Source of the DNA: an uncultured Candidatus Saccharibacteria bacterium
Lineage (GTDB): Bacteria; Patescibacteriota; Saccharimonadia; Saccharimonadales; JAGQNJ01
DNA length: 64,000 nt
NCBI GenBank assembly: GCA_964504275.1
Contig: CAZDDV010000004.1
Location: 9,908 to 73,907 of the forward strand
Direction: 5' to 3'
The position numbers and the translations under genes are program-made. Shown here piece after piece: positions 13,100 through 62,533 of this stretch (positions are counted from its first letter, which is position 1; the number at the start of each line of letters is the position of its first letter). A model generated the notes under the pieces. It was given only the letters and a program-made list of their open reading frames with translations, was not told the DNA's origin and did not search any database.

Positions 13100-13141
13100 T
13101 TCAGTCCCTTTCGTTGGACGCCCCAGTAGCCAGCTGAAAAG

Positions 13142-17391: not shown

Positions 17392-17402
17392 TCACCCCTC
17401 AC

Positions 17403-45275: not shown

Positions 45276-46151
45276 ATGCAGTTACTTGCTGGTACTGCTG
45301 TATTAATAATGTGGGCATTCACAATTATATGTTTGTCTCCAGTGGTTTCTGCACAACAAGATTTCGCGCGCCCACTTTCGTGTGGAGCATCTGACGGCGC
45401 GCAGGTAACCACGAACGTGACATCGCTTCCATCGGGAGACGTATATATAAGAACCCAAAAGTCTAACCAATATACACGGTTTGACGTTGCGGTGAGCGTG
45501 GCTGGTGGAGGATGCCTCAAGATGCGTAGCGTCAAGTCTAAAGAATCGTCGTGGACAAAAATTGGAACAATCCCAGCAACGGTTCAGGGCAAACAGGCCG
45601 ATATGGTGGTGAGTGCCGCTGATTTTAAGCTAGAGAACGTATACAGTAACATTGCCAGTATTCTTGTTGTTAACCCAAAAGTTTGTAAAATTACACAAAC
45701 AGATTGCATTGCGCGTTACGGCGGAGCAAAAGTTTTGGTTGAGCCCAAAACCCTCAGTGGTAATCAGGATCATATTTCATTGCAAGTTGTGAAGCCGTTT
45801 GCTGATCAGATGATTGATTACGTGGATTATTTTGACGGTGGCGAGTTTTTGTATCGTAGCAAATCTATCGATCCTGTTGACGAAAGATATTTGCGCGGGG
45901 GCGAGCGTCAGGTGCGCAAAACAGTTCACTTATCCGGCGGTAGCGTTTTGCATATCGACGAAGTATCAAATCAGCCAAACGACCCGCTGTATTCAAAATA
46001 TCTCAGTAGCAGTTTTTTCCGTTTGAGCCGCCAGTTTAAGATTGTGATTGTCGTTGCCGGAGTTGCAATTATTGGTTTGGTATCTTTGGGAGCCCTGCGG
46101 TTTGTCCATAAGCGCCGGCAATATATGCGAAGCCATGGTTTCAAAAGATAA
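45276..46151 (+). CDS. Hypothetical secreted protein with a C-terminal membrane anchor
   Basis: The signal-peptide-like MQLLAGTAVLIMWAFTIICLSPVVSAQQ motivates the start at 45276 (the track begins at TTG 45222). C-terminal TM VIVVAGVAIIGLVSLGAL followed by basic residues. Confidence 0.55.
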   Translation: MQLLAGTAVLIMWAFTIICLSPVVSAQQDFARPLSCGASDGAQVTTNVTSLPSGDVYIRTQKSNQYTRFDVAVSVAGGGCLKMRSVKSKESSWTKIGTIPATVQGKQADMVVSAADFKLENVYSNIASILVVNPKVCKITQTDCIARYGGAKVLVEPKTLSGNQDHISLQVVKPFADQMIDYVDYFDGGEFLYRSKSIDPVDERYLRGGERQVRKTVHLSGGSVLHIDEVSNQPNDPLYSKYLSSSFFRLSRQFKIVIVVAGVAIIGLVSLGALRFVHKRRQYMRSHGFKR

Positions 46152-46155
46152 TCCG

Positions 46156-46842
46156 TTACAAAAGTGTGAAGCCATTGAGCCGCAGAATAGAACGACCAAC
46201 AATGTCGCTGGCCGGAATTTGCCCAAGTTTAGAGCGAGAATCAATTGAGCCGCCGTTTGTGCGGTTATCGCCAACAACAAAGATATGCCCTGGCTGAATC
46301 GTGATGTCGATGTTATCTGGAAGCTCGGCGAGGTTGGCGCAACAAGGCGGGTTTGTGATATCTGCCCCGGTCGGGCTAGTTTCGTTAAAAACAGTGATTG
46401 TACTATTTTTAATCACGATTCGGTCGCCCGAAATGCCGACAACTCGTTTGACGTAGGCGCCGTCGCTTTCGCGCACAATTACAACGTCGTGGCGTTTTGG
46501 AATGTACAGACTGCGGGTTAACTCTGCCCAGGCTTGAGGTGCTTTCAGCACGAGCATTTTGTCTTCGTTGTTAAGTGTCGGAGTCATGGACTCGCCGTCG
46601 ACAGTATAGATGCCAACGCCCCAAAGATTGATTGCGACTACTACAAATAAAACTGCCGCGCCGGTAAGCAACCATTTTAGGGTGCTGCTAATTTTTCGCT
46701 CGGTGGCATGTGTTTCTGGGGCAATCGGGACCTCACGTGGTTGTGTTTGGAATTCGACAGGTTTAGTTAGGAGCGATTCTGGCACTTCTGGCTCGTCTTC
46801 TGGCTTGGCTTTGGGTGCAACATGCTGATCCATAATAAGCAC
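46156..46842 (-). CDS. lepB: Signal peptidase I
   Basis: GESMTPTL (catalytic Ser), RHDVVIV, and GDNRTNGGSIDSR (box E). Confidence 0.9.
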   Translation of the reverse strand: MLIMDQHVAPKAKPEDEPEVPESLLTKPVEFQTQPREVPIAPETHATERKISSTLKWLLTGAAVLFVVVAINLWGVGIYTVDGESMTPTLNNEDKMLVLKAPQAWAELTRSLYIPKRHDVVIVRESDGAYVKRVVGISGDRIVIKNSTITVFNETSPTGADITNPPCCANLAELPDNIDITIQPGHIFVVGDNRTNGGSIDSRSKLGQIPASDIVGRSILRLNGFTLL

Positions 46843-46974
46843 TAGTGTATCATTTTGTGAGTAAAAAATGCGCTGCGGTTGACTGACTACTCGAATTGGG
46901 CATAATAGTAAGTAACCATAAGGGGATGGGTGTTTTTGGGGTATAGCAAAGAAATTGACGAAGGGCTTGTGTAA

Positions 46975-47112
46975 ATGGCGAGACTACCAAAACCAGGTGG
47001 CGATGAAGGTAATTGGGGAGATGTGCTCAATGCTTTTTTAAAGCACGCACATAATTCTGACGGAACGCTAAAAGACACTGGAGTTTTGTCTGAGAAACTG
47101 GCGACACAATGA
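46975..47112 (+). CDS. Tail-fibre-like protein, N-terminal module as a separate 45-codon ORF (probably a frameshifted part of the next ORF)
   Basis: Not in the track. MARLPKPGGDEGNWGDVLNAFLKHAHNSDGTLKDTGVLSEKLATQ is homologous to the N-termini of the 48651 and 50960 proteins. Its stop overlaps the next ATG (ATGA). Confidence 0.5.
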   Translation: MARLPKPGGDEGNWGDVLNAFLKHAHNSDGTLKDTGVLSEKLATQ

Positions 47113-47699
47113 CTGGTGATTTAGATATGGACAGCAATGTTATTACTGGCGTGGCGGACGGATCAGACGATGCTGACGCCACGAATATCGGACAATTAGC
47201 GGCAGCAATTGCTGATGTTGAAACTGATCTCGCTAGCGTTGGCACCGAAATTACTGACTTGCCAGCTGCAACCCGCACCGACGCATCGTGGGATCCCGTC
47301 TATGTAAATAACGAAAATTTTGTACCGATTGTACAAGATGGTGTGGCCAAGAAAATGCCGCTTGAACTTCTTACGTCTATGGGTCCATCGCTCGGCGCTA
47401 CGGTTACGGGGACAACCTACATATGGAGCAGTAACGAGACAGGAATACTTTGCAATAACGATAGCCCGCTTGTTATTACGCTCCCGACATTTGGATCTGC
47501 GCCGGGTCTTCATGCGCCAATTCGTGTTGTGAGTATTGGAGCGGGCAGTGTGACGTTAGAAGCCGCTGGGTCCGTTGTCATTAATCGCGCAACGGGACTT
47601 CCACTGACACTCAGGTCGCGGTATAGTGTTGCGTACTTTCAGCCATATTTTTGGCTGGCAGGAACTACGCTATACATAGCATACGGAGATCTCGGCTAA
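47109..47699 (+). CDS. Tail-fibre-like protein, C-terminal portion
   Basis: MTGDLDMDSNVITGVADGSDDADATNIGQL is the classic phage-fibre motif. The C-terminus (PIRVVSIGAGSVTLEAAG...YGDLG) parallels the C-termini of the two large paralogues. Confidence 0.6.
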   Translation: MTGDLDMDSNVITGVADGSDDADATNIGQLAAAIADVETDLASVGTEITDLPAATRTDASWDPVYVNNENFVPIVQDGVAKKMPLELLTSMGPSLGATVTGTTYIWSSNETGILCNNDSPLVITLPTFGSAPGLHAPIRVVSIGAGSVTLEAAGSVVINRATGLPLTLRSRYSVAYFQPYFWLAGTTLYIAYGDLG

Positions 47700-48529
47700 T
47701 GCTCGTAACATCTTCGGGCAGCCCACTTTTGCTAGCCGGACAACAAGTGTTGCATAGCGGTACGTTTGTTGATAATTTTCAGCGGGTAACTTCGTTGCCG
47801 CATGCGCCACTTGGTATGGGATGGACTGATCTTGGGTCGTTGTTTCCGCAGAGTTATGATCCGGCCCGCATTTATAACGGTGGTGTTACTTCTGGCGATC
47901 CGTATGCTCGCGGCAATAACGGTGCAACGATGGCGCCTGATGACGATTGGGAGCATTACGCTGATTATCCTGGAATGGCTGGGGGCGGAATTGGCGGCGC
48001 TGTTAGGAACCTTGGCACGGGTCAGTTTAATTATGATGTTACGGTCCGTATGAGTGGTGTTTTGTCGGGGGGCACCGAACACGGGGCCGAGGCCGAGGGT
48101 ACACCACTTGTCGGTGTCGATACCGCTACGCCTGGTGTGGGATATGGCGCCTGGCTCGTGAACATGCGAAACGTAATCGCGCCGTACAACACTGACGTCT
48201 TTGTGTTTTTGATAGGCACGATAAATAATCCGCCCGAAAGCTTCACGGTGTATTATCGGTCGGGCCTTGTTACTCATACTGACGGCCAAGCTCGTGACTT
48301 AACGATAAAATATCGCGGCTCGACGATCACGATTTGGCTCGACGACGTGCAGGTTACGGGTCTTATTGATCACCAAACCGATCTGCCGGCTTCTAGCACA
48401 ATTACGTTACCGGCGGCCCACCAAAATAAATCTTGGGCGGGGTTTGCGTTTGACCATCATATTACGCCTCCGGCCGACATCACGACAACTCCGGCAGTTT
48501 TGCGGTACTCGCACCAAATAATAACTTAG
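47699..48529 (+). CDS. Hypothetical protein, possible jelly-roll/LamG-like fibre accessory protein
   Basis: The ATG at 47699 overlaps the upstream stop (TAATG). Gly-rich beta-type sequence ending ...DLTIKYRGSTITIWLDDVQV. The LamG-like assignment is tentative. Confidence 0.45.
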   Translation: MLVTSSGSPLLLAGQQVLHSGTFVDNFQRVTSLPHAPLGMGWTDLGSLFPQSYDPARIYNGGVTSGDPYARGNNGATMAPDDDWEHYADYPGMAGGGIGGAVRNLGTGQFNYDVTVRMSGVLSGGTEHGAEAEGTPLVGVDTATPGVGYGAWLVNMRNVIAPYNTDVFVFLIGTINNPPESFTVYYRSGLVTHTDGQARDLTIKYRGSTITIWLDDVQVTGLIDHQTDLPASSTITLPAAHQNKSWAGFAFDHHITPPADITTTPAVLRYSHQIIT

Positions 48530-48650
48530 TTCGGCGTCAAGCCATTAGTAATAATTGACCGAACCGGCGAGCTCTGATATACTAGATTTAAGCATGAGGG
48601 GATATTAGGGTTATTAACATGAATAGATATGTTCGGAGTTACAGTTAGAA

Positions 48651-48785
48651 ATGGCACGCCTACCAAATCCAGGTGGTGACAGTGACGAATGGGGAGATAT
48701 CCTCAATTCTTTTTTGGGTGTTGCTCATAACGACGACGGAACACTAAAATCACTCGATCCCGACGACGTCGGACTTGGTAACGTT
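48651..48785 (+). repeat. 135-bp near-identical direct repeat (copy 1) at the 5' end of the fibre paralogue
   Basis: 133/135 nt identical to 50960-51094 by direct comparison. Differences are at offsets 35 and 117. Confidence 0.85.
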
Positions 48786-50822
48786 AACAACACGAGTGAT
48801 ATAAACAAGCCGGTTTCTTCCGCCGCCCAAACTGCACTAGACCTGAAGCTGAGCAAAACCGGCGGTACGATGAGCGGCAATCTAAACATGGGCGGTAGCC
48901 AGGTTACTAACCTTGGGGTCACTACCAGTGATGCGGATGCTGCAACCAAGAGTTATGTAGACTCGATTAGCTTTGAGAGTATGGCAACTGCAAGCGGCGG
49001 CACAAATATGCGCGATGCAAATCTAGATGCGTGGTACGAAGATCTCGAGAACGCTACGACTCAATCGGTTGATCTTGTTGTGCTTGCGGATTCGATTGGC
49101 GAATTTGGCTGGATTGACGGCCTAGAGACGCAACTAGCCACTCGTTATAATGCCCGCCAAGATGTGATGACTCAGCCAATTGTCGGCTATCATACTGCGG
49201 GCAGTACTTCGTTTCATGCGATGCCGACCAGTACTGGATCGGATAGTGAATCTGGCGCAGCTGGTTTTTCTTCGACGCTCACTGATGGGCAGTCGTCGTC
49301 AATGACAGTCTATTGTGACGGTGTCATTGTGTTATGGACGGCCGGGACGGGCACACTAACCGTAAAGGATGGTGGCTCTGGTGGTTCAACGGTGGCTACT
49401 ATCGATACAAACACCGGAACAGGTTCGAGCAACATCACGTCGATTGATCTCACTACTCACGCCAGCCACAATATCTGGATTGGATCGACAGGGAATACCC
49501 ACCTCGAGGGCGTATATCCGACAGCTGGTAATCGAACTGTCGGTGTCAGGGTGTGGCGATTTGCACACGCAGGCTATAGTACTGCGGATTTCGTCGATAA
49601 TACTGACTATGGCCTGGACTTTATCGCAAAACTAAAGGTTCATACTGGGCGCGAACCGCATGTCATGGTAGCAACCGGATTCAATGACCCAGTGGTTAGC
49701 TATGAGGACGACTTAAACAATTTAATTACAGCCATAAAGGCGCGAACTAACGGGACACTTACCCGCTGGATTAACTGGGGGAGTTCCACGGGAAATGCTG
49801 GTGGCGTCGCTAAGCATGACATCGCACTTGATGTAGCCGAGCAGCAAAATATGGCCGTTATCGATGCATATCGAGCATTTGGCGATATTGGCTTAGGGGC
49901 GGATGCAAACAATCTGAGCCCAGATAATGCCCATCCGGGTGCCTCTGGCAGCGGTGTTATTATGACGCAAGCTTTGTTGGTGCTAGGAGGGGATCCCTTA
50001 GGTGCACTCAGCGGGGTGGTTACTTCATATCCATGGAATTATCGTGGCACCATTAGCACTACGCACGCAGTTCCGACCGGCAATTCGTTATGGTCGCCAA
50101 CTCTTGATCTTGGCAGTATCGACACCGCCCACTTTTTTGGCTACCCAATGTTCCACGTTAAAAATAGTAGTGGGGATGACTGGGGGCAAATTTCAATTGT
50201 TCCGGGACCAGCGGTTGAACAGTTGTATCCTGCATTCGATGCCGCGACAATAGCTTTTGGTCCTGGCGGCGATGGCGCTTTTGCTCCAACGTGGGATACG
50301 TATCTCTACCGCAGCGGTAGTGGTGAATTGTCATTGCGAGCGAGTAACACCACATATGCCAACCTTGTTACGAACCTAACTCGCAGTGGTGCTGGATCTC
50401 CAGAGACAAGCGTAGCTGCACCTATCGGCGCAACTTATAAAGACACCACCAACGGCACCAATTATATAAAAACGGTCGGAACTGGCAACACTGGCTGGCA
50501 AGCGGCTGGCGGAAACCGTGCCATTAATGCCCAGGTAGGAACCAGTTATACGCTGTTACTTGCCGACCAAGGAAAAGTTGTAACGCTTAATAACGGCTCA
50601 GAAATTACTTTAAACATACCAACCAACACAACGGCGGCTTTCCCAGTCGGGACAGAAATAGACATAATTCAGCTTGGTATCGGGCAGGTAGTAGTCACGC
50701 CCGCTGGAACCGTGACAGTAAACAGCACGCCAGGCCTAAAAATTTCTGCTCGATATGGCCGCGCCAAGTTGTTAAAAATTGCCACCAATGGATGGGTTCT
50801 TTCGGGTGACCTATCGGCTTAG
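48651..50822 (+). CDS. Tail-fibre/tail-spike-like protein with a central SGNH-esterase-like domain
   Basis: N-terminal MARLPNPGGDSDEWGDILNSFLGVAHNDDGTLK, the fibre motif GGTMSGNLNMGGSQVTNLG..DAATKSYVD, SGNH block I DLVVLADSIGE and block V DNAHPGASG, and the shared C-terminal module. Confidence 0.65.
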   Translation: MARLPNPGGDSDEWGDILNSFLGVAHNDDGTLKSLDPDDVGLGNVNNTSDINKPVSSAAQTALDLKLSKTGGTMSGNLNMGGSQVTNLGVTTSDADAATKSYVDSISFESMATASGGTNMRDANLDAWYEDLENATTQSVDLVVLADSIGEFGWIDGLETQLATRYNARQDVMTQPIVGYHTAGSTSFHAMPTSTGSDSESGAAGFSSTLTDGQSSSMTVYCDGVIVLWTAGTGTLTVKDGGSGGSTVATIDTNTGTGSSNITSIDLTTHASHNIWIGSTGNTHLEGVYPTAGNRTVGVRVWRFAHAGYSTADFVDNTDYGLDFIAKLKVHTGREPHVMVATGFNDPVVSYEDDLNNLITAIKARTNGTLTRWINWGSSTGNAGGVAKHDIALDVAEQQNMAVIDAYRAFGDIGLGADANNLSPDNAHPGASGSGVIMTQALLVLGGDPLGALSGVVTSYPWNYRGTISTTHAVPTGNSLWSPTLDLGSIDTAHFFGYPMFHVKNSSGDDWGQISIVPGPAVEQLYPAFDAATIAFGPGGDGAFAPTWDTYLYRSGSGELSLRASNTTYANLVTNLTRSGAGSPETSVAAPIGATYKDTTNGTNYIKTVGTGNTGWQAAGGNRAINAQVGTSYTLLLADQGKVVTLNNGSEITLNIPTNTTAAFPVGTEIDIIQLGIGQVVVTPAGTVTVNSTPGLKISARYGRAKLLKIATNGWVLSGDLSA

Positions 50823-50959
50823 TGGGTGCTCGCAAGAGTAATGACAGAAAAGGGTGTTTCTGTCACGAGCATACATATTAATTTATGCTACAATACAACA
50901 TAAGCATAAGGGAACAAGCAGTAAAGGGTATGTGTATAAATAACAAAGGCTCCAACTAA

Positions 50960-51094
50960 ATGGCACGCCTACCAAATCCAGGTGGTGACAGTGGCGAATG
51001 GGGAGATATCCTCAATTCTTTTTTGGGTGTTGCTCATAACGACGACGGAACACTAAAATCACTCGATCCCGACGATGTCGGACTTGGTAACGTT
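50960..51094 (+). repeat. 135-bp near-identical direct repeat (copy 2)
   Basis: See 48651-48785. A second shared block of 48 nt with 1 mismatch lies at 50451-50498 and 52778-52825. Confidence 0.85.
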
Positions 51095-53146
51095 GATAAC
51101 ACCAGCGATGTAACAAAAAACTCTGCCGTCGCAACCCTAACAAACAAAACAATCGACGCAAACGGAACTGGCAACAGCATTACGAACCTAGAAACTGCTG
51201 ACTTTGCCACCAACGTCATCGATACCGACGACACGCTGACTGCTAACTCTGATACGCGTATCGCAACGCAGCAAGCAACCAAGGCGTATGTAGATAATTC
51301 CACGATTGCGGCCTTACCCGAACCTGGTGGCACGATGATGCAAGACCCGCAATTATCGGCATGGTTTAGCGATTTAGAAAACCCGCGCGATAACCCGATA
51401 GATCTTGTATATTTGGGTGACTCGATTCACGAAATCGCAAGCATTGCATTAGTGGTGCAAACACAGTTGGCAACTAGGTTTAACAGTGATCTTGGTGTGC
51501 CAACCGTAACACAGATTGGGTATCGCCGTGCATCATCTGGTGGTTGGGGTCCAATGGACACAATTGGCGGAACAAGCAGTACTGACGTCAGTGGTTTTGG
51601 TGGATACCATTGCACGATGACCAATGGTCAATCTTGTGCGCACACCGCAACGTGTGATGGCGTGCTTGTGGTATGGCGCGAGAACACCGGCACATTAACG
51701 ATCAAAGATGGTGGTTCTGGCGGCACGACAATCGGCACAATTGACACGACAACCGGTAATGGCTGGAGCAATGTCAGTAGTTTTGATTTCGGTACTCTTG
51801 CTAGTCGTGAAATTTGGATTGGGTCAACTGGTAATACGACACTTGAGGGTATTTTTGTTACGGTCGGTAACTTAGATGCCGGTATTCGCGTGTGGGACGG
51901 TACAAATGCCGGTACAGCGGTAGAGCATTTTGCAAATGATAGTTCGTGGGGTATTGATCTTATCGCCGGGATTAAGGCGCTAACTGGCCGAGAAGTTCAT
52001 TATTTCTTGGCGCCAAGCTTCAATACGGCCGAAGTAGACTACCAGTCCGAAATGGAACAGCTTATTGACAGTATTCAGGCAGTGAGCAGCGGCTCGGGTA
52101 TTATCTGGTCGCCATGGCTAAACCCGTCAGTCGGAAAAGAGCTGGGTCGAGGCAACATTGCTCGTGCGATTGGAGCAGACAAAGGCTTGGCGGTCATTGA
52201 CGCCGGCCGGGCCTTTGGTGACATTTCAGCGATTGGCGACGCCAATAATTTGAGCGGCGACGGCGCACATCCGAGTACAAACGGCGCCGCCGTGCTCGCA
52301 CTGCACGAATTAATGGTGTTAACCGGTGATCCGCTTGGCACGCTCGCAGCTGCGATCCCGATGGGTTATTACGACTACACGGGCACATTTACTGGCCCAA
52401 CTACGGGTGCCCATACTGGAAACTGGAAGGTGGACGGTGGTGACAACGGAAGCTTAGAGGGTACATCGGTATTTGGATATCCATATATCGGGGTTAAGGT
52501 TGACGACGACGACCTGGTCCAGCAAGTTTTAATTGCACCAAGCTCAACAATGAGTGCTCTAACTGCCGGTGCAATTACGAATGCGGTTATTGCGCTCGGC
52601 GTTGGCGGTGGAACAGCCCAAGATGTATTTTTGATGCGAACCGCGGCGGGCGAGCTGTCAATACGAGCATCAGCAACAACCTATGCAAATGTAGTAACGA
52701 ATCTTATCCGTAATGGCGCAGGCTCACCAGAAGCCAGCGTTACTGCACCAGTCGGGGCAAATTATACTGACACTACAAACGGCACCAATTATATAAAAAC
52801 GGTCGGAACCGGCAACACTGGCTGGGCATATGCAAGTGGCGTGCAGCCTATTAACGCGCAGGTTGCGAGCTATCCATTGGTGCTTGCAGATCAATTCAAG
52901 ATGGTGACAATGACGAGTGGCTCTGCGATGGATCTTACGGTGCCGTTGAATTCAAGCGTCGCATATCCAGTTGGTACGCGAATTGATATCACGCAGCTTG
53001 GAGCCGGTCAAGTTACTGTCGTTGCAACTGGTGGTGTCACGATCAATGCCACTCCAGGCCTTAAGTTAAGTGGGCAATATGCCGCTGCCTCACTCGTCAA
53101 AACTGCCACAAACACATGGCTACTGATTGGTAGTTTGTCAGCATGA
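50960..53146 (+). CDS. Tail-fibre/tail-spike-like protein with a central SGNH-esterase-like domain (paralogue)
   Basis: The first 45 aa are almost identical to the 48651 protein. SGNH block I DLVYLGDSIHE and block V DGAHPSTNG. Conserved C-terminal TNGTNYIKTVGTGNTGW...GSLSA. Confidence 0.65.
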   Translation: MARLPNPGGDSGEWGDILNSFLGVAHNDDGTLKSLDPDDVGLGNVDNTSDVTKNSAVATLTNKTIDANGTGNSITNLETADFATNVIDTDDTLTANSDTRIATQQATKAYVDNSTIAALPEPGGTMMQDPQLSAWFSDLENPRDNPIDLVYLGDSIHEIASIALVVQTQLATRFNSDLGVPTVTQIGYRRASSGGWGPMDTIGGTSSTDVSGFGGYHCTMTNGQSCAHTATCDGVLVVWRENTGTLTIKDGGSGGTTIGTIDTTTGNGWSNVSSFDFGTLASREIWIGSTGNTTLEGIFVTVGNLDAGIRVWDGTNAGTAVEHFANDSSWGIDLIAGIKALTGREVHYFLAPSFNTAEVDYQSEMEQLIDSIQAVSSGSGIIWSPWLNPSVGKELGRGNIARAIGADKGLAVIDAGRAFGDISAIGDANNLSGDGAHPSTNGAAVLALHELMVLTGDPLGTLAAAIPMGYYDYTGTFTGPTTGAHTGNWKVDGGDNGSLEGTSVFGYPYIGVKVDDDDLVQQVLIAPSSTMSALTAGAITNAVIALGVGGGTAQDVFLMRTAAGELSIRASATTYANVVTNLIRNGAGSPEASVTAPVGANYTDTTNGTNYIKTVGTGNTGWAYASGVQPINAQVASYPLVLADQFKMVTMTSGSAMDLTVPLNSSVAYPVGTRIDITQLGAGQVTVVATGGVTINATPGLKLSGQYAAASLVKTATNTWLLIGSLSA

Positions 53147-53859
53147 TTCCGCTTGGAATTATGGCGAGCCAAAGCAGTACCCCACTTCCACCATTTGATA
53201 TTCTAACAAGCATTCCATGGCACGCAGCATATTGGGCCGAAGATCCTGGCTGGTCAAATCCTGGCGATGGCAACACTGTTACGACCTGGGATGATGCCAC
53301 AACAAATGGTCGTGATTTAACGCAAGGTACGGCAGGTAGCAGGCCAACGTATCGTAGTAGTTCAGCTACGCTGAATAACAAACCAGCGCTGGAATTTGTA
53401 AGTGATTTTTTTACGGCTACTTCTGCTGCTTGGGGTACATTAACGCAGCCAGTAAGTATTGTTGTGGTTGGATTCTGGACTGCCCCAGACGCAAGTAACG
53501 ATGCGATTGTTGGCGCAAACAGCGGCACATTTTTACTTCGTAAAAGTGCTACGTCATCAATACAAATTTTTGCTGCAGGAGGCGTTACGGGTGTGACGGT
53601 GAATGGCAATGGCCATCTTTATGGGGGCGTATATAACGGTGCTAGTTCAAATATCATTTATGATGGCACGCTTACCAGTGGTAACGTTGGCGCAGGTAGC
53701 TTGGCCGGTGTTACATTGAGTGGCGCCACCGGCGCAGCCGCTTCATCACATACCTTTACTATGGCGTTTGCGGGGTTCTACAGTGGAATTATAACCAGCC
53801 ACTTGCGTTGGACTGATCTAAAAACTTGGGTCACTAGTCAATACGGCATATCGATGTAG
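53143..53859 (+). CDS. Hypothetical protein, LamG/concanavalin-like (tentative)
   Basis: ATGA overlap with the fibre gene. W..EDPGWSNPGDGNTVTTWDDATTNGRDLTQGTAGSRPTY....LNNKPALEF resembles the opening of LamG-domain proteins. Confidence 0.5.
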   Translation: MIPLGIMASQSSTPLPPFDILTSIPWHAAYWAEDPGWSNPGDGNTVTTWDDATTNGRDLTQGTAGSRPTYRSSSATLNNKPALEFVSDFFTATSAAWGTLTQPVSIVVVGFWTAPDASNDAIVGANSGTFLLRKSATSSIQIFAAGGVTGVTVNGNGHLYGGVYNGASSNIIYDGTLTSGNVGAGSLAGVTLSGATGAAASSHTFTMAFAGFYSGIITSHLRWTDLKTWVTSQYGISM

Positions 53860-53860: not shown

Positions 53861-54550
53861 TTATGGGTTGATTGGGTCGCCCAGGACTGTCGGTTCGCCT
53901 TTTATGTAGACATTGTAGAGTGCTTTGACACGGGCTAGGATTTCGCGGCGAGTGCTGCCTATGGCCTCTACATTATTCGCAACACCGTAGCTATCGATAC
54001 CAAAATGTTTGCACAAAAATATTGCCCGCGGCAAGTGCGATCCGGCGCTAAAAATGATCAGTTCGGATTGCCCAAAGATTTTGTTGGCGCGCTCGCACGA
54101 CTCAAAAGTGCTACGGCCGGCGTAATCCGGTATCAGCTTTTCGCTCGCGATTCCTTTGGCGATTAAATAATCTTTCATCGCTTGCGGTTCGTTGTATTCA
54201 AAAAACCGGTTATCACCAGATAAAATGAGCTTGTCTACTTTGCCGGCTGCAAGGGCTTCGGCGCCGCTGTCCAAACGTGCTTCCAGTTCTTTGTATGGTT
54301 TGCCCTCGGCAGTAATTCCGGCGCCTAATACCAACCCAACCGAGCGCTTCGGCGCCTCATCTATCGAAACAACCCGATTTTTATAGGGGTTAATTATTAA
54401 GTATGAAGCCACAATCAGCAACACGGGAATCAGCAACAAAACATCAATTGCCAAAAAACCAATCAAGAGTTTTTTGCGCGTAGTAGTGTTAATCATTATT
54501 TTAATCATACCAAATATGAAAACAGATACTGATATTTGGGGTGAGTTCAT
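53861..54550 (-). CDS. SanA/YdcF (DUF218) family envelope protein
   Basis: N-terminal TM helix, then VGLVLGAGI and KLILSGDNRFFEYNEPQAMKDYLIAKGI, matching the SanA pattern SGDN...YDEP.AM. Confidence 0.7.
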   Translation of the reverse strand: MNSPQISVSVFIFGMIKIMINTTTRKKLLIGFLAIDVLLLIPVLLIVASYLIINPYKNRVVSIDEAPKRSVGLVLGAGITAEGKPYKELEARLDSGAEALAAGKVDKLILSGDNRFFEYNEPQAMKDYLIAKGIASEKLIPDYAGRSTFESCERANKIFGQSELIIFSAGSHLPRAIFLCKHFGIDSYGVANNVEAIGSTRREILARVKALYNVYIKGEPTVLGDPINP

Positions 54551-56262: not shown

Positions 56263-56435
56263 AATCGCACGACTGCAATCATGCTCGAAGCAAACTTCTG
56301 CGCGTAATCTTGCGACCGAACCTCGGCTTTGCCGAACAGTTCTCGGCATAACACACAAGCCAATATAAAAAGGCCTCAAACGAGACCTGTTTATATTGGC
56401 TGAGCATGCTGGTCTGGAACATAATTATAGATGAG

Positions 56436-56460
56436 AATGAGACAAATTAGACACTATAAA
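56436..56460 (+). repeat. 25-nt motif AATGAGACAAATTAGACACTATAAA (copy 1; promoter/operator-like)
   Basis: 23/25 identical to 58103-58127. It is preceded by CTGAGCATG..GGTCT (56400-56420), which also recurs at 57993-58013. Confidence 0.7.
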
Positions 56461-56474
56461 TGCAATCTATATAG

Positions 56475-56957
56475 TCAATTTGACTCGAAAGACTTTCTGA
56501 GTGCTTCTGCATCTATGCCTGGCGAGAAAGGCACATTCTGATAACTCACCAGAAGCGTCCACTTAACATCCTCAGATTTATGATAAGTGCTTGCCATCAT
56601 TGTCCCAAAATCACCATCACTATCCGTTGTACTAACATTGTAAAATAACACAGCAGTATTACTAGTTGGTTGTGAGAATTCAATGAATTTATAATAGCAG
56701 TCTCCCCATGGCTTAGAGTTCGTTGATAAATCAATAAATTGTGAACGTGAAATAGTTACCCAAAAACCTCCATCAGAGGGCATAAAAAGAAAGCCGCCAG
56801 GATATACATTTTTTGTAATGTAACTCCTTGCCATATTTTTTCCTGTTGCTCTCCAAAAACCACGTTCAATCTCAAATATCAGATTAAATGTTGGGTTTCC
56901 CTCGAGGATTGTTGGAATCTCATAATGATCTTTTAGGTTTTCATCTATATTTGCCAC
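56475..56957 (-). CDS. Hypothetical protein (island cargo)
   Basis: 160-aa ORF with no recognisable motif. Confidence 0.5.
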   Translation of the reverse strand: MANIDENLKDHYEIPTILEGNPTFNLIFEIERGFWRATGKNMARSYITKNVYPGGFLFMPSDGGFWVTISRSQFIDLSTNSKPWGDCYYKFIEFSQPTSNTAVLFYNVSTTDSDGDFGTMMASTYHKSEDVKWTLLVSYQNVPFSPGIDAEALRKSFESN

Positions 56958-56997
56958 AGACTCGACTCCTTAGTTTAATCTAAACATTAATTAATCA

Positions 56998-57684
56998 TCA
57001 TCTGATTCTCACTAATATTTCCTTAAATGCATCAACTTTTACATCTATTTTTGTTAAAAGTTCCTCTCGGTTTAGACCGTAGGAATTTGGATGTTTCTTT
57101 CTTGATAAGACATGTGCTTTTACGTTATTTTCAAACCTCTTTGCGCCTTCTATCTGATTATCGAGAATTATTTTCGAGATATTTTGATCACTTATTATAA
57201 CGATGTCATAGATTGCTTTGTTGGAGATCTTATAGTTTACCTTGGTCTTGTTTCTACCTTCGATAAGTTGGCAATTCTTCCCTCTTACGATATCTAGTAA
57301 ATATCCATCTTTTTTACAAAGCTCAATTAAACCATCTCTTTTATATCCCAAATCCATTTTGAGGTCTATGAAAGTTGTAATTTCATTATTCTTTATAATA
57401 ACAATATCCGGTATAAATCTTTTAGTATCATTTTCTATTACTATGGATTGGTCGACATAAATTTTCTCGATTGTGTCATCGTTTTCGGCAAGATACTTTG
57501 CAAATAAATCTTCAGCTAGTGGAGAAATTGATCTCGACCTACCTCTGTAAATTTTATCTTTTGGGTAAAAGGGAATACGTGCTAAGTGGTACTGGTTGAT
57601 AATTTCTTTGATAAAATCAGTTGGACTTATAATTTCCTCCTCACGCTTCGTCAATACTACTGATAAGCACTTTGCGTTGTCCAT
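56998..57684 (-). CDS. PD-(D/E)xK restriction-endonuclease-like protein (island cargo)
   Basis: RFIPDIVIIKNNEITTFIDLKMDLG gives the D...(D/E)xK core. Start is uncertain: ATG 57684 overlaps the upstream gene by 44 nt, and a GAGGAGG lies right after that gene's stop. Confidence 0.5.
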   Translation of the reverse strand: MDNAKCLSVVLTKREEEIISPTDFIKEIINQYHLARIPFYPKDKIYRGRSRSISPLAEDLFAKYLAENDDTIEKIYVDQSIVIENDTKRFIPDIVIIKNNEITTFIDLKMDLGYKRDGLIELCKKDGYLLDIVRGKNCQLIEGRNKTKVNYKISNKAIYDIVIISDQNISKIILDNQIEGAKRFENNVKAHVLSRKKHPNSYGLNREELLTKIDVKVDAFKEILVRIR

Positions 57685-57916
57685 TTTCAATAGCTGGCCC
57701 AATATAGCCCAACTGTTCCATGGTATCAATAAGCCTTGCGGCTCTTGCGTATCCAATCCTTAATTGTCTCTGCAGTAAGCTCGGGCTTACCGAGCCGGCT
57801 TCAATAGCTACTTTAACGGCTTCTTTCAAAACATCGTCTTGACTATCGGTAACTAGCACTTCGTCATATTTATTTAAATCATGTCCGCAGTTCGGACAGA
57901 AATGTATTTTACTCAT
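57641..57916 (-). CDS. Zinc-ribbon plus FtsK-gamma winged-helix DNA-binding protein
   Basis: N-terminal FCPNCGHDL. The C-terminal SVSPSLLQRQLRIGYARAARLIDTMEQLGYIGPAIENGQRKVL is an unmistakable FtsK gamma-domain pattern. Confidence 0.7.
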   Translation of the reverse strand: MSKIHFCPNCGHDLNKYDEVLVTDSQDDVLKEAVKVAIEAGSVSPSLLQRQLRIGYARAARLIDTMEQLGYIGPAIENGQRKVLISSIDEA

Positions 57917-58102
57917 GTTATAAATTATAACTCATTCTCGCTTAATAAATGAACTCAGTTCTGCCCAAAGCGCTTGGACAAGACCCGAAAGTCTGAGCAT
58001 GTGGGTCTAGACCTGAAAGTCCGGCTTTATGTTTCACTAAACGTGACTCGAGTCATTGGGCGCTCGGGTCTAGATAGTTTTCACAGGGTAGATTAGCCAA
58101 AA

Positions 58103-58127
58103 AATGAGACAAATGGGACACTATAAA
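58103..58127 (+). repeat. 25-nt motif AATGAGACAAATGGGACACTATAAA (copy 2), 40 nt upstream of the 55-aa ORF
   Basis: See 56436-56460. The nearby GGGTCTAGA is itself duplicated (58003-58011 and 58066-58074). Confidence 0.7.
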
Positions 58128-58166
58128 AAAGGGTGTACCATTTTAGCTTAACAAACGGAGATAAAT

Positions 58167-58334
58167 ATGGCATACATATCTCAAAACCAGAAAGACGATG
58201 ATCGTGAATTGACTAAAGAAGAGCTTTCTAACCTAACAGGTTTTTTTGATGTACTTATTCAGATGGACTTGGAGCAAAAACGGAAAGCTAAACATGCAGA
58301 GGAAAAGAAGTTTCAAATCGAGCAAGTTGATTAA
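58167..58334 (+). CDS. Small element-associated protein with motif NLTGFFDVLIQMDLEQK
   Basis: Below the track cutoff. My translation gives MAYISQNQKDDDRELTKEELSNLTGFFDVLIQMDLEQKRKAKHAEEKKFQIEQVD. GGAG RBS. It is homologous to the 2966..3214 product. Confidence 0.6.
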   Translation: MAYISQNQKDDDRELTKEELSNLTGFFDVLIQMDLEQKRKAKHAEEKKFQIEQVD

Positions 58335-58401
58335 GGTTTTTATAACTGTGCTCTAGCTATAAATATACTTCTCAGCACATCGAATTATTTATCCCAGATG
58401 T

Positions 58402-58980
58402 TTAGGAATTAGAGGTATTTGGTGCGTTTAGATTATGCGCCGACGCAGGTGCTCTTTGGCACATATTTATATTGAGGTAATTCAAACTTTCGAAAAATTC
58501 TAGTCGAGATTTCAGATCACTTTCAGCCTCTTCGCGGACTGCCTCGACTTCCGCAATTCGGGTTACATGATTGATTTTATTTGGGAGAAACCCGTTATAG
58601 TGCTGGCCCGTTATGTAGTATGCATGTTTTGCTTTTAGCAACTCAACGTATTGAGGGAGTTGGACTTTGATACCATGAATATACGATGGGTACTTATCAA
58701 CTTCACCTTTCATAGAGTTGTTTTTTAATAACTTGAGCTCAATCGCTATCCTACAACTCTTGTAGATAACGTGAAAATCTAGATAGCCGTTACCTGACCC
58801 TGACTCCGCAATAAACGTAACGTCATCAAAGTGGTCGAAGAACGCTAACCCCATAGCACGAAACTTTCTGCCTATAACGGGCTCTGTCTCAGGTTTTAAC
58901 GGCATCCCTTTCCATGCATCTTTCCAGCCATCCCTCAAGCTGAATTCATCGTCGACGACTTTAAGCAGTTTTTCCACCAT
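58402..58980 (-). CDS. PD-(D/E)xK nuclease-like protein (island cargo); possibly 5'-truncated
   Basis: YLDFHVIYKSCRIAIELKLL gives D...ExK. The frame stays open a further 75 codons upstream (to 59205) with no ATG, GTG or TTG. Confidence 0.5.
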   Translation of the reverse strand: MVEKLLKVVDDEFSLRDGWKDAWKGMPLKPETEPVIGRKFRAMGLAFFDHFDDVTFIAESGSGNGYLDFHVIYKSCRIAIELKLLKNNSMKGEVDKYPSYIHGIKVQLPQYVELLKAKHAYYITGQHYNGFLPNKINHVTRIAEVEAVREEAESDLKSRLEFFESLNYLNINMCQRAPASAHNLNAPNTSNS

Positions 58981-59212
58981 CGCTTTTAATCCATTGCAGT
59001 CTTCAATTGGCTTGAGGTCTAGGTCCTCGTACTCATCAAAGTAATCCGAGAATGTTTTGTCTGCGAGTAAATTGAGGGGATCATCGGCAAAGTCATATGG
59101 ATCTGTCTCTTCCTCTAGAAGTTTGAGATACCGGAAGTGTACAGCTTTTTCTTCTTTGAAGACGTTACGAATTTTTGCGGTACCTTGTACCTTGAAAAGA
59201 AAGGATTAACGG

Positions 59213-59554
59213 ATGAGAATAACTAATGTCGATATGAAAAAACGCTCAGGCACAAGCTTTAAAGGCTTTGTATATGCTACTTATGACCAGCTTCTAGCCT
59301 GCTTTGGAGATCCGGCAATAAATATGGACAACGATAAAACTGATGCAGAGTGGGTAGTTGATACACAGCACGGCGTAGCCACGATCTATAACTACAAAGA
59401 CGGTAAATCATATCTTGGTGATGCTGGGTTGGAAATGTATAAGATTTGCGAATGGCACGTAGGCGGTAAAAATAACGAAAGCTATGATTGGATAAAAACC
59501 CAATTATTTAAACCTATTGGTTTATTGCATGGCTCTGACGAACAAGTGTTATAA
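59213..59554 (+). CDS. Hypothetical small phage-type protein
   Basis: 113-aa ORF with GAAAGGA RBS. The FKGFVYATYDQLLACFGDP...AEWVV...ATIYNYKDG...WHVGG pattern recalls uncharacterised phage proteins. Confidence 0.5.
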   Translation: MRITNVDMKKRSGTSFKGFVYATYDQLLACFGDPAINMDNDKTDAEWVVDTQHGVATIYNYKDGKSYLGDAGLEMYKICEWHVGGKNNESYDWIKTQLFKPIGLLHGSDEQVL

Positions 59555-60437
59555 CGTAAGGTATTTCGTCAAGGTTAGTTAGCGTTACCTCATAGTCACC
59601 ATTACCCCAGTGACCAATATGTACTGGCTTTTCTAGATCCCTCGCGATACCCTGTGGATCAGTTAGTTCGCCTGATTTAACATTCAAGAACAATTTCAAT
59701 TTGTTCTTTTTGAACACAACATCAACAAAATTTCGTGTCATTTTATAGGCAACATACAACTTTTTTGGCTCCTCAGTAATGTTTTGGTCTAGGGCAAGTA
59801 TTTCTTCTTTTAGTGCTTTGAATAATTCTTGCGTATTATTGTCTGCTTGAGCAAGATGCTCTTCAAGCGTGTATGTTTCCTGAAGTTTTCCATGCTTAGC
59901 TGCGTCGCCGTTGCTAAACTTTGGCTTATCTGAAATCTTTACTTTCTGATAGTTCTCTTTATCAAGCACCAACATATCGTCTTCATAGAGCTTATATTTG
60001 TAGAGCTCAATATTAATGGGCAAAAGGTCGGCTGTATCGGCATCGAATTTATTGTAATTTTCGGCTACACAAATAACACGAGGTGCGTTCCATTGAATTG
60101 CAGTCATAACATTCATTTCATTACATAACTTCTCAAAACTATCCTTGTGATCCAATAACCACCGGAGGTAAGACAAGCCCTGGTTAATTACACTGTCATT
60201 TTGGCCTTTTTTGTACTCGATAATACATGGGTTACCCTCCCCGTCGATACCGAGAGTATCCATGCGACCTCCGAAGCTAGTTGAGTATTCATGCGCCAAG
60301 AAGGTTACATTTAGCAATTCATCGAGGTTTTCCTCAAAAATTTTCTGAACTTCTCGCTCAAGCGTCTTCTTGCCATTACTTACTACGACAGGATTTAATC
60401 GAGAGACTTTTTGATTCTTTATCTTAAATAAACTCAT
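59514..60437 (-). CDS. NucS/DUF91-like PD-(D/E)xK nuclease domain fused to a DUF5655-like C-terminal domain
   Basis: GRMDTLGIDGEGNPCIIEYKKGQNDSVINQGLSYLRWL (D..ExK..Q..Y). The C-terminal YVAYKMTRNFVDVV is typical of DUF5655. ATG at 60437 (MSLFKI) preferred. Confidence 0.6.
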   Translation of the reverse strand: MSLFKIKNQKVSRLNPVVVSNGKKTLEREVQKIFEENLDELLNVTFLAHEYSTSFGGRMDTLGIDGEGNPCIIEYKKGQNDSVINQGLSYLRWLLDHKDSFEKLCNEMNVMTAIQWNAPRVICVAENYNKFDADTADLLPINIELYKYKLYEDDMLVLDKENYQKVKISDKPKFSNGDAAKHGKLQETYTLEEHLAQADNNTQELFKALKEEILALDQNITEEPKKLYVAYKMTRNFVDVVFKKNKLKLFLNVKSGELTDPQGIARDLEKPVHIGHWGNGDYEVTLTNLDEIPYVITLVRQSHAINQ

Positions 60438-60501
60438 ATCTGTAATTATACGCATTATGTACTAGCTTAACCAAAAGCATTGCGGTACTGTTGTGCTTGC
60501 C

Positions 60502-61761
60502 ATGGAGTCAATAATAGATACAAAGTACTGCCTATACGCTCGCAAATCTAGTAAGCAAGATGAACGTCAAGCAATGTCGATAGACTCGCAAGTTAAAGAA
60601 ATGCTTACCTTGGCAGAACGTGACGGCCTGAATATAGTAGAGACCAAACATGAAAGTCATTCAGCAAAAGAATCTGGGAAGCGGCCAGTATTCAACGAAC
60701 TTCTAGCTGACTTGAGAAACGGCAAATTCAACGGCGTGCTTACGTGGGCACCCGACAGGCTAAGCAGGAATGCAGGGGATCTAGGATCGTTAGTAGATCT
60801 AATGGACAACAACATGCTTCATCAGATCCGGACGTATGGCCAAAGCTTCAGTAATACTCCGAATGAAAAGTTTTTACTAATGATCCTATGCTCTCAAGCA
60901 AAGCTAGAGAATGACAACAGGGGTGTAAATGTAAAACGCGGAATTAGAGCGAAGTGCGAAATGGGGTGGCGACCATGCATGCCGCCTCTTGGCTACTTCA
61001 CGCGTGCTGCAACTGGTGGTGCTAGAGATGTGATAATTGACGAAGAACGCGCACCCTATATTAAACAGATGTTTGAAATGTCGGCAGACGGTAAAAGTGG
61101 CCGCCACATAAAAAGATGGCTAGAAGACAACAAAGTTCGTACAAGGGGTGACAAGGTCATACCACTTAGTATGATATACCGGATACTTTCTAGCGAATTC
61201 TATTACGGAGAATTCGAATACCCTAAAGGGAGTGGACAGTGGTATAAAGGCAATCACGAGCCGATGGTTATAAAAGAGCTTTTCTTAAGAGCCAGAGAGC
61301 AAGCCAAAGTACCAATTAAAGGCAAATGGGGTGCAAAACAGTTTCCGTTCAAGCAATTTTTGAAATGCTACTCATGCGGATCAACCATAGTCGGCGAAGA
61401 GAAAATCCGGAAATACAAAAACGGAAAAACACATCGTTTTGTTTATTATCACTGCTCTAGACAGGTAGAGCTTAAATGTAAGGAACCATACGCCAGAGAA
61501 AAGGACATTATAGAGTCTCTAAGAACGATGTGTAATGACCTAATAACTGATACTGCTGGGTTAGAACCAGGACTGCAAGATGCAATAGACAAGTTCACTA
61601 GAATGATGAGCGCAACACATAAAGGCTACGGCAAAAAGAACATGATAGGAGGCTATATTAAATATGTGCTGCAGGAAGGCTCAGACTTCGAGAAAACTAG
61701 GCTAGTGAGGAACTTGGATCTTGAGCTTCGTCTACATAACAGAACAGTAAACCGTGTTTAG
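60502..61761 (+). CDS. Large serine recombinase/integrase of the tRNA-Gln island
   Basis: CLYARKSSKQDERQAMSIDSQ (catalytic Ser), WAPDRLSRNAGD, recombinase domain, and zinc ribbon CYSCGS...YYHCS. Confidence 0.9.
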   Translation: MESIIDTKYCLYARKSSKQDERQAMSIDSQVKEMLTLAERDGLNIVETKHESHSAKESGKRPVFNELLADLRNGKFNGVLTWAPDRLSRNAGDLGSLVDLMDNNMLHQIRTYGQSFSNTPNEKFLLMILCSQAKLENDNRGVNVKRGIRAKCEMGWRPCMPPLGYFTRAATGGARDVIIDEERAPYIKQMFEMSADGKSGRHIKRWLEDNKVRTRGDKVIPLSMIYRILSSEFYYGEFEYPKGSGQWYKGNHEPMVIKELFLRAREQAKVPIKGKWGAKQFPFKQFLKCYSCGSTIVGEEKIRKYKNGKTHRFVYYHCSRQVELKCKEPYAREKDIIESLRTMCNDLITDTAGLEPGLQDAIDKFTRMMSATHKGYGKKNMIGGYIKYVLQEGSDFEKTRLVRNLDLELRLHNRTVNRV

Positions 61762-62474
61762 TTCGAAGCTTTTGCAGCTCTTACCATTATTGATTTTTCT
61801 AAGGAGCTATCAAAATCTCCTCGATTATGAACAAAAACGTCCAAATTGCTTTCTAATGAAAGACGGCTCATAACTACATCATCTCTTGAATCAACCTTTA
61901 CCCAAAACTTATACAAACCTGGTAAGTAGGCCTCGTAATAAACGATCCCTTTGATCCGTGTTTTAGCAGGAAACATTATTCCACCCACTTCCTTGCCTGT
62001 GCTAAATTTGCTAAAGATGACTGTGTAGTCATTCGGTTTACCACTTGAGTTTGCGAATATCAACTCACGCATCTTGTTTTCATGCTGAACTCCAAGACTA
62101 ACACCAGAAAATTCACTTCTTGATGTTATTGAAGCTCTCCATAGATATGACACACAGAATAGCTTTAACTTTTTTTGATCTATACCACTTATAGTCCAAC
62201 CTAAGCCTGAAGGATGATTCACAAGCTTGCTGTCTGTTATAAATTTGATGCAATAATCATCATATTCGCCAATTTTATTATCACAATTTGCACAAAGTAT
62301 TCCTGAATCATAAGAACCTACAGGGGCACGGCGTTTTTTATCAAAGTCTGTACCGACAATTAATAAATTGCCGTACTCATCTTTAGACAGTAGCTTCAAT
62401 AGTCCGCGAGGGAATATGTGTGCATCACATTTGTTAGTCGAATCAATAAGTATTCCGCACAGCTTACATTTCAT
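61758..62474 (-). CDS. Hypothetical Cys-cluster (HNH/zinc-finger-like) protein
   Basis: The track ORF extends to 62765 across the tRNA gene. I truncate it to the ATG at 62474 (GAGGA RBS). MKCKLCGILIDSTNKCDAHIFPRGL...CANCDNKIG suggests a zinc/HNH-like N-terminus. Confidence 0.5.
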   Translation of the reverse strand: MKCKLCGILIDSTNKCDAHIFPRGLLKLLSKDEYGNLLIVGTDFDKKRRAPVGSYDSGILCANCDNKIGEYDDYCIKFITDSKLVNHPSGLGWTISGIDQKKLKLFCVSYLWRASITSRSEFSGVSLGVQHENKMRELIFANSSGKPNDYTVIFSKFSTGKEVGGIMFPAKTRIKGIVYYEAYLPGLYKFWVKVDSRDDVVMSRLSLESNLDVFVHNRGDFDSSLEKSIMVRAAKASN

Positions 62475-62533
62475 ATGTGTCCTCGATTTATACCAAAATA
62501 TACACCCCTTCGGGTCATGTTTGGTGCAAGTCG

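Follow-up and report, generated by a model that had tools for sequence, protein, structure and literature searches.

Organization of the fibre locus

In a 64-kb stretch of DNA from an uncultured Candidatus Saccharibacteria bacterium (contig CAZDDV010000004.1; hereafter the window, in whose positions all coordinates are given), five genes related to phage tail fibres and their partners occupy 46975-53859 on the plus strand. Sequence comparison identifies this fibre locus as a phage-derived receptor-binding and esterase module, fixed and selectively maintained in a Saccharimonadales-type chromosome. The genes, all on the plus strand, are g1 (46975-47699), which falls into two pieces in the translation and the list of open reading frames (ORFs), orfA (47699-48529, 276 aa), the intact g2 (48651-50822, 723 aa) and g3 (50960-53146, 728 aa), and orfB (53143-53859, 238 aa). 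The coordinates and gene order given by the first-pass annotation, which was made from the letters alone, were correct. It had also described the two small ORFs as coupled to the fibre genes upstream, and this is borne out by the overlaps: the start of orfA overlaps the stop of g1 by 1 nt, and the start of orfB overlaps the stop of g3 by 4 nt (ATGA). Its picture of three paralogous genes stands for g2 and g3, which are intact paralogues with 51% identity, but g1 is frameshifted and lacks the enzyme.

All three fibre genes open with the same N-terminal module (N-module), MARLPxPGGD…WGDxLNxFL, as the first-pass annotation had proposed. In g2, the N-module (residues 1-33) is followed by a stalk with the motif GGTMSGNLNM (residues ~34-119), an SGNH core with an inserted beta-sandwich (residues 120-455, nt 49008-50015), a beta-rich region (residues 470-619) and a phage-type C-terminal domain (residues 620-723, nt 50508-50819). 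The SGNH core of g3 spans residues ~127-464 and its C-terminal domain residues 626-728. The window copy of g2 differs from the database copy by G714E.

The SGNH esterase core of g2 and g3

An SGNH hydrolase core had been proposed for the two large copies, and its blocks are present in both. The core residues are D147-S148 (S148 at 49092), G308, N345, D425 and H428 (at 49932) in g2, and D154-S155 (S155 at 51422), G318, N355, D434 and H437 (at 52268) in g3. Block I reads LADS148I in g2, with ADS in place of GDS, and LGDS155I in g3; the DxxH of block V reads D425-N-A-H428 and D434-G-A-H437. The D-S, N, D and H positions do not vary among 16 homologues, in which the glycine is at least 90% conserved. 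G308 and G318 were assigned as the block II glycine from their position in the model and by analogy with G236 of the peptidoglycan esterase Ape.

The structure of g2 was predicted with AlphaFold2 (AF2) from the 16 homologues. Residues 120-455 were modelled with a predicted local distance difference test score (pLDDT) of about 90, and the stalk scored below 50. A Foldseek search of the PDB with the g2 core returned Ape1 at the top (4k3u from N. meningitidis and 8gkd from C. jejuni, E 6e-13 to 3e-11), with alignments of 370-386 columns and template-modelling (TM) scores of 0.62-0.68 on the target; the values for 4k3u were E 6e-13, 382 columns and TM 0.68. Lower-ranked matches were CE2 esterases, GDSL enzymes and CBM6 modules (E to 1e-3). 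The predicted fold is therefore that of SGNH esterases, in agreement with the blocks read from the letters. Neither g2 nor g3 matched a Pfam family at E 0.1, and Pfam Lipase_GDSL_2 matched the homologues P0005, P0014 and P0018.

In the model, a sugar-binding-like beta-sandwich (about residues 197-305 of g2) is inserted between the block I serine S148 and G308. The corresponding elements of Ape are S80, a CBM35-like module at 104-221, G236, N268 and D366/H369 (PMC6174289; bioRxiv 10.1101/2021.09.23.461501). Ape1 and the g2/g3 core are thus alike in carrying a CBM35-like beta-sandwich between the block I serine and the block II glycine of an SGNH domain, and in the comparable spacing of the S, G, N and D/H residues. 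They differ in that identity in the structural alignment is only 13-14%. Moreover, the Ape1 of Neisseria and Campylobacter (CE3) carries a signal peptide and is secreted into the periplasm as a housekeeping enzyme, whereas g2 and g3 have no signal peptide and their core sits inside a fibre with phage-type ends. Given the Ape1-like fold and the conserved catalytic residues, the g2/g3 core is very probably an active carbohydrate O-acetylesterase. Elsewhere in the window, a separate conventional GDSL lipase/esterase gene (20247-20978) encodes a hydrophobic N-terminal segment and provides an example of a secreted SGNH enzyme of this organism.

Phage ancestry of the stalk and C-terminal domain

The GGTM[ST]G fibre motif, which had been assigned to all three genes, was found in g2 (GGTMSGNLNM) and, as TGDTMTGDLDM, in g1, but g3 has a different stalk without it, reading TLTNKTIDANGTGNSITNL…SDTRIATQQATKAYVD. 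Likewise, the C-terminal module claimed for all three is strongly conserved between g2 and g3 and only weakly in g1. The C-terminal ~100 residues match PHROG 8780, a minor tail protein family (4e-21 and 6e-19), the stalk matches tail-fibre families of PHROGs, and PHROG 35419 was also matched. When 50,697 phage records were searched with tblastn, 336 matched, 239 of them from Gordonia phages, with matches confined to residues 39-110 in the stalk and 620-722 at the C-terminus. Structures in BFVD that are similar to the core include tail proteins of phages of Gordonia, Arthrobacter, Rhodococcus and Klebsiella, and the C-terminal domain superposes at 1.3-1.8 Å on many proteins of uncultured phages. 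The PHROG, BFVD and Foldseek matches together uphold the description of these genes as phage-tail-fibre-like with a real esterase core.

Full-length homologues are few; the contigs of three (P0005, P0013 and P0015) are clearly those of phages. In the first, tape-measure, Dit and M23 peptidase genes precede P0005 and a Laminin_G_3 protein comes after it; in the second, P0013 is upstream of the genes for capsid, tail tube and tape measure; and P0015 lies downstream of minor-capsid and scaffold genes. The guanine-plus-cytosine (GC) content of these contigs is 0.42-0.44, near that of Saccharimonadales and unlike that of Gordonia. The three phage copies have N-termini other than the N-module, and the C-terminal domain of P0005 is the same as in g2 and g3. 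Judging by these relationships, the gene family is of phage origin.

The N-module is common to phages and cells

Among 13 copies of the N-module from nine loci, 13 of the 33 positions are invariant. The N-module homologues examined initially were all cellular, and all three copies without the module lay in phage contigs. A pattern scan then yielded at least 549 metagenome loci (among them L044-L123) with GC contents of 0.35-0.69 and frequent tandem arrays, such as four paralogues in L066 and three in L101; the bodies of these proteins are very diverse. The module is also present in 19 IMG/VR contigs (L025-L043), some with a Saccharimonadales-like GC content of 0.42-0.44. In L033 the N-module protein comes after the tape-measure protein (TMP) and Dit, in L043 it comes after TMP, and the contig L031 includes genes for a portal and a major head protein. 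In six BRock-like phages of Streptomyces, the module is part of a collagen-like protein encoded in their tRNA region. A role as a cell-specific anchor was rejected because of the 19 IMG/VR contigs, in two of which the module directly follows TMP/Dit. None of the N-module members tested was matched by a Pfam or NCBIfam model, and a word-indexed protein search with the 45-residue N-module gave no candidates. The 33-residue N-module defines a large unnamed superfamily common to phages and cells.

Within the locus, the first 156 nt of g2 (48649-48804) and g3 (50958-51113) are 96% identical, against 51% for the full proteins. This disparity is a sign that gene conversion has recently acted on the N-module region. 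Being direct repeats, the two stretches could also cause the loss of g2.

g1 is a split copy without the enzyme

The first piece of g1 (46975-47112, plus strand) is a 45-codon ORF with the N-module MARLPKPGGDEGNWGDVLNAFLKHAHNSDGTLK and ends at a TGA at 47110-47112. The second piece (47109-47699, plus strand, 196 aa) lies in the -1 frame, and its ATG at 47109 overlaps the upstream TGA. The identical split is present in two near-identical metagenome contigs from other samples (L001 and L002), which shows that it is genuine and no sequencing error. With one A put back into the run at 47095-47097, the sequence becomes …LSEKTGDTMTGDLDM…, parallel to …LSKTGGTMSGNLNM… of g2. A programmed frameshift was rejected because 47092-47112 holds no slippery heptamer, and the loss of one nucleotide in the A-run appears to be the simpler explanation.

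The second piece carries the stalk motif and a YadA_stalk-like segment (Pfam, 5.9e-7, above the cut-off), and it matches PHROG 21978 at 2e-5. Its C-terminus is weakly related to that of g2 (29% identity over 58 aa, E 3e-5, BLASTP), and the SGNH core is absent. Thus, g1 is probably a split or decaying copy, and g1-orfA a degraded third copy.

The partner ORFs orfA and orfB

orfA has 53 representative relatives in 1.84 billion proteins and belongs to an unnamed family of ~260-aa proteins, for which no Pfam, PDB or NCBIfam family was found; the sole lead is a sub-threshold match to Pfam 3keto-disac_hyd (E 0.028). orfB has nine homologues among 5.8 billion proteins, and one distant homologue carries ArabFuran-catal. 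It matches PHROG 10356 (1.9e-7) and no Pfam family. Its model is mostly beta with a mean AF2 pLDDT of 50, and Foldseek returned nothing significant. BLASTP and hhalign detected no relationship between orfA and orfB. BLASTP, hhalign, Pfam, a PDB profile search, AF2 and Foldseek returned nothing significant in favour of the two being paralogues or LamG proteins. The LamG/jelly-roll fold that had been suggested for both is thus not borne out, orfA having only a sub-threshold match and orfB a low-confidence model.

L007 and L017 have true Laminin_G_3 proteins in the partner position, with no detectable relation to orfB. In L021, the partner of a very distant SGNH-fibre relative is an orfB homologue (37% identical, E 1e-50), and by this comparison orfB is a conserved partner of SGNH-type fibre genes.

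Partner ORFs in both cellular and phage loci share an N-terminus of the type [IL]G[IF]xA[AS]Q, and their bodies are not detectably related. Their starts are MIPLGIMASQ (orfB, 53143), MFHIGIQAAAQ (L017, 12853), MIGIIASQ (L007, 13186) and MSPRIGFFAAQ (L003, 12667 and 14230). This shared N-terminus may serve as a docking peptide for the fibre.

The fibre locus lies among cellular genes

The locus is flanked on the left by the convergent S26 signal peptidase gene (lepB; 46156-46842, minus strand) and on the right by a DUF218 gene (53861-54550, minus strand); a VCA0040-like protein gene also flanks it (Pfam). These agree with the lepB and sanA-like/DUF368 flanks named in the first-pass annotation, which had further held that no phage structural gene is nearby and had named a prophage edge as the finding that would overturn its reading. 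No capsid, portal, terminase or baseplate family was found by Pfam in the scanned ORFs of the whole 64-kb window (nearly all of ≥150 aa). The scanned ORFs of the window and the gene table of L001 are cellular (guaA, rpsP, khpA, trmD, sodC, ligA, leuS, nusB, rnc, murein genes and others), except for two islands unrelated to the fibre locus. A repeat search found no att-like direct repeats flanking the locus, no integrase or other phage gene lies at it, and the gene tables of seven related cellular loci (up to 10 kb on each side of the fibre gene) contain no phage structural family. A prophage edge was therefore rejected for the window.

The GC content of the locus is 0.50, against 0.43 elsewhere, and the GC content at third codon positions (GC3) of g2 and g3 is 0.46, equal to that of the housekeeping genes. 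A foreign composition was rejected, because GC3 is native and the raised GC content follows from the Gly/Ala/Thr-rich composition of the proteins. A known defence system was likewise rejected, as PADLOC gave no match.

Each fibre gene has its own predicted sigma-70-like promoter match. A consensus scan found TTGACT-16-CATAAT with the leader motif CATAAGGGGA before g1 (46879-46926, plus strand) and TTGACC-17-TATACT, with TG, and CATGAGGGGA before g2 (48555-48602, plus strand). Before g3 (50886-50914, plus strand), an extended -10-like element TGCTACAAT and the leader motif CATAAGGGAA were read from the sequence and found by motif search. The motif CATRAGGGRA occurs three times in 64 kb (46917, 48593 and 50905), once before each fibre gene, a statistic that is indicative only since the pattern was derived from its own three sites. 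Its distance is ~10 nt from the -10-like box upstream and 55-58 nt from the ATG downstream, in g1, g2 and g3 alike. The orthologue in L018 keeps part of this arrangement (TTGACT-17-TATCAT…TAAGCATAAG). CATRAGGGRA may be a shared leader or regulatory site.

As to the two islands, the one at 56403-62533 (6.1 kb, low GC) abuts tRNA-Gln (62534-62608) and encodes an FtsK-gamma protein, a helix-turn-helix protein, DUF5655 and a large serine recombinase (60493-61761). L001 and L002, which are otherwise 99.8% identical and keep the fibre locus, lack this island, and it therefore has the look of an element that integrated recently and has no connection to the fibre genes. The other is a low-GC defence island (11329-18275) with a serine recombinase, Shedu SduA, an EcoRI-type adenine methylase, a GmrSD/HNH nuclease and DUF5677.

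Stand-alone fibre genes are retained in relatives

Stand-alone N-module fibre genes among housekeeping genes were found in at least eight other Saccharimonadales-type contigs (L003, L006, L015, L017, L018, L019, L020 and L021), and several are followed by a coupled or closely spaced ORF. L003/L004 and L006 are two loci of the Ca. Saccharimonadales metagenome-assembled genome (MAG) JTS-RE76. In L015, two paralogues lie next to tatC/tatA, as in L003. L017, on a contig of 817 kb, holds two N-module paralogues with a Laminin_G_3 partner, and L020 and L021 each have a coupled partner. In L019, from a Saccharibacteria-type MAG, a fibre gene with the phage C-terminal domain (6905-8608) lies between dnaK and dnaJ, within the cluster of heat-shock genes. 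Patterns of the core are patchily distributed, with three loci in two of 185,579 species representatives. No relatives turned up when metagenomes were scanned with the VCA0040-like neighbour to find some that lack the locus.

L018 represents a different species (identity to the window of 67% for RpsP, 69% for TrmD and 72% for SodC), and the same rpsP-khpA-trmD-sodC block lies upstream of its fibre locus. Its g3 orthologue, P0004 (56-59% identity), is coupled to an orfB orthologue (238 aa, 75-80%). Selection was assessed against L018 on the two genes with an orthologue there, g3 and orfB. The proportions of nonsynonymous (pN) and synonymous (pS) differences were 0.29/0.85 for g3, 0.13/0.72 for orfB and 0.20/0.72 for trmD; pN was 0.19 for sodC. 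Synonymous sites are saturated in all genes (pS 0.72-0.85), and by pN orfB is more conserved than TrmD or SodC. These values point to purifying selection on the g3-orfB pair, which as a neutral remnant would have decayed over a distance at which synonymous sites are saturated. Collectively, the synteny and purifying selection of g3-orfB, the native GC3, the promoter-like sites and the recurring stand-alone loci support the earlier view that these are retained cellular genes and not the edge of a prophage.

Possible function of the fibre genes

Considering that selection has kept the fibre genes intact, the cell probably uses them itself. Each combines a short N-terminal module, putatively for docking, with a trimer-type stalk and a C-terminal domain of phage type, and g2 and g3 carry, between stalk and tip, an Ape1-like SGNH enzyme whose Ser-Asp-His triad and Gly/Asn oxyanion hole are intact. 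The proteins would assemble into fibres, probably trimeric, for which the YadA_stalk match of g1 is the one hint; the fibres would bind a cell-wall glycan, and the enzyme would de-O-acetylate it, be it peptidoglycan or a wall polysaccharide. By analogy with the Bdellovibrio fibres described below, an epibiont would use this activity on the envelope of its host while attaching or feeding. We rank this function first, that is, extracellular binding and de-O-acetylation of wall glycans at the epibiont-host interface, and give it a probability of roughly 45%. Trimeric assembly, the substrate, the extracellular location and the action on a host are what we infer in it.

Several observations weigh against such a use. 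No signal peptide or membrane segment was found in g1-g3, orfA, orfB or their relatives: the maximum Kyte-Doolittle value over 10 residues within the first 45 residues is at most 1.3, against 2.6-3.6 in envelope proteins of the window. Since the N-module heads tail proteins beside TMP/Dit in viral contigs, it looks like a virion-docking module and not a cell-surface anchor. Copies from phages and from cells are intermixed in a neighbour-joining tree built on the core, and at 53% identity the C-terminal half of the phage protein P0005 lies closer to the cellular P0006 than g2 does, so that some of the signal of selection could stem from time spent in phages. At the strain level, eight single-nucleotide polymorphisms (SNPs) fall in the locus, and those in g2 and g3 are mostly nonsynonymous (five, against two synonymous), numbers too small to test selection. 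To these points are added the frameshift in g1 and the epibiotic lifestyle itself, which is taken from the names of related MAGs.

Some of the same observations would suit another use of the locus, as a store of spare parts for a phage-like particle, in which the N-module would dock on a tail or baseplate encoded elsewhere (tailocin-like or like a gene transfer agent) or on infecting virions, there giving an alternative host range or acting as a decoy that ruins or diverts the phage progeny. N-module proteins right after TMP/Dit (L033) or TMP (L043) and in a contig with head genes (L031), a missing export signal that fits virion proteins released by lysis, the exchange of sequence between phage and cell gene pools, and the Saccharimonadales-like GC content of some N-module viral contigs all speak for it. 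The gene transfer agent of Rhodobacter likewise has its head-spike and tail-fibre genes away from the main cluster. On the other hand, no tail, baseplate or capsid gene was found in the scanned ORFs of the 64-kb window or in the gene tables of the seven related cellular loci, a decoy would need neither conserved catalytic residues nor a strongly conserved partner, PADLOC matched no defence family, and the three SGNH-bearing phage copies examined use different N-termini. We regard this use as unlikely and place it second. If the locus were instead the last piece of an old prophage, a cryptic remnant or recombination reservoir with no role in the cell that occasionally recombines with incoming phages, the frameshift and lost core of g1 would be expected, as would mosaic genes such as g2 and g3 with their near-identical 5' ends, the interleaved tree and the patchy distribution; tail-fibre genes are frequent survivors in the cryptic prophages of E. 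coli. Such a remnant fits g1, but not g3-orfB, which stayed intact (pN 0.29 and 0.13) at saturated pS and in a syntenic position after rpsP-khpA-trmD-sodC. The invariant catalytic residues, the native GC3 and the lack of an integrase, att repeat or other phage gene at the locus also disagree with it, and a genome of ~1 Mb would not normally keep ~7 kb without a use. It is therefore an improbable account of the locus as a whole, third in our ranking.

The enzyme might also be directed at the cell's own wall glycan and, by de-O-acetylating it, prevent the adsorption of related phages, a superinfection exclusion of phage origin. The closest phage copies lie in contigs with GC contents of 0.42-0.44, and their fibres would then bind Saccharimonadales surfaces; P0005 shares its C-terminal domain with g2 and g3, and receptor-modifying SGNH tail enzymes are well known (PMC5380687, PMC13123978). 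Nevertheless, such self-directed use, which we rank fourth and consider very doubtful, meets the same export problem as action on a host, and the host of the phage contigs is deduced from GC content. In addition, the C-terminal domain occurs in phages of Gordonia, Variovorax, Pseudomonas and other hosts and need not carry specificity. Returning to action at the epibiont-host interface, a bolder and, in our judgement, unlikely form of it is that the fibres are a host-targeting organelle domesticated from whole phage receptor-binding proteins in Saccharimonadales epibionts and possibly in other carriers of tandem N-module genes. The fibres would be exported without a signal peptide, the wall of Actinobacteria would be de-O-acetylated and so opened to lytic enzymes, and exchange of receptor-binding proteins with phages would keep the host range evolving.

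Relation to known systems

Phage fibres and tailspikes with an SGNH esterase domain include the products of actinophage genes labelled 'minor tail protein' or 'hydrolase', G7C gp63.1 and the tailspike esterase of epsilon15. The window genes resemble such SGNH-bearing phage fibres in their modular build (an N-terminal docking part, a stalk, an SGNH esterase and a distal domain) and in the coupled partner gene that follows the fibre gene, a LamG protein in phage L007. They differ in standing alone among cellular housekeeping genes with promoter-like sites of their own, and in being conserved in position and under purifying selection between species. The stf/tfa tail-fibre cassettes that defective prophages of E. 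coli K-12 keep are a second parallel: the remainder of the phage is gone, a fibre gene is left together with a small partner gene behind it, and the cassettes are mosaic and recombining. One copy at the window locus is a pseudogene, which adds to the likeness. Unlike these cassettes, the window locus has no neighbouring phage remnants, invertase or integrase, and it shows cross-species synteny and strong purifying selection.

The mosaic adhesive trimer (MAT) fibres of Bdellovibrio bacteriovorus have a signal peptide followed by a conserved ~130-aa N-terminal domain, and many MAT fibre proteins end in an S74 chaperone-protease (PMC10769870). The window proteins share with them a conserved N-terminal part, variable distal parts and the presence of several paralogues, but have neither a signal peptide nor an S74 domain; their 33-residue N-module is also used by phages, and they carry an esterase core. 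MAT fibres are thus the closest parallel in concept, likened by described features and not by sequence homology.

The host-contact candidates published for ultrasmall epibionts are type IV pili, a type IV secretion system and a few glycan-binding proteins (PMC10633639). The Saccharibacteria literature, as searched, contains no description of phage-fibre-like genes, and no Pfam, NCBIfam or PADLOC model names the proteins of the locus. The proteins are new members of the known SGNH-bearing phage fibre class, and their conserved stand-alone chromosomal state in Saccharimonadales is a new form of phage-fibre domestication. Such a stand-alone fibre-esterase module is a concrete candidate for how epibionts recognise and open the host wall. 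A host-targeting organelle would be another instance of the MAT principle, arisen independently and working by a different mechanism, and would point to a new export pathway; use in a particle or as a decoy would be informative on phage-host conflict in streamlined genomes. In either case, the locus exposes the large unnamed N-module superfamily.

Sequence variation near the locus

Next to the fibre locus on its upstream side, where a 309-aa envelope gene and lepB converge with their 3' ends, the window differs from L001 at 45935-46246 by ~36 clustered SNPs and an unalignable segment (46018-46192), a tract with the look of recombination. At 55630, a 1-nt indel relative to L001 and L002 lies in the region of a DUF2200 gene that overlaps the end of the VCA0040-like gene, and the gene calls there differ between assemblies.

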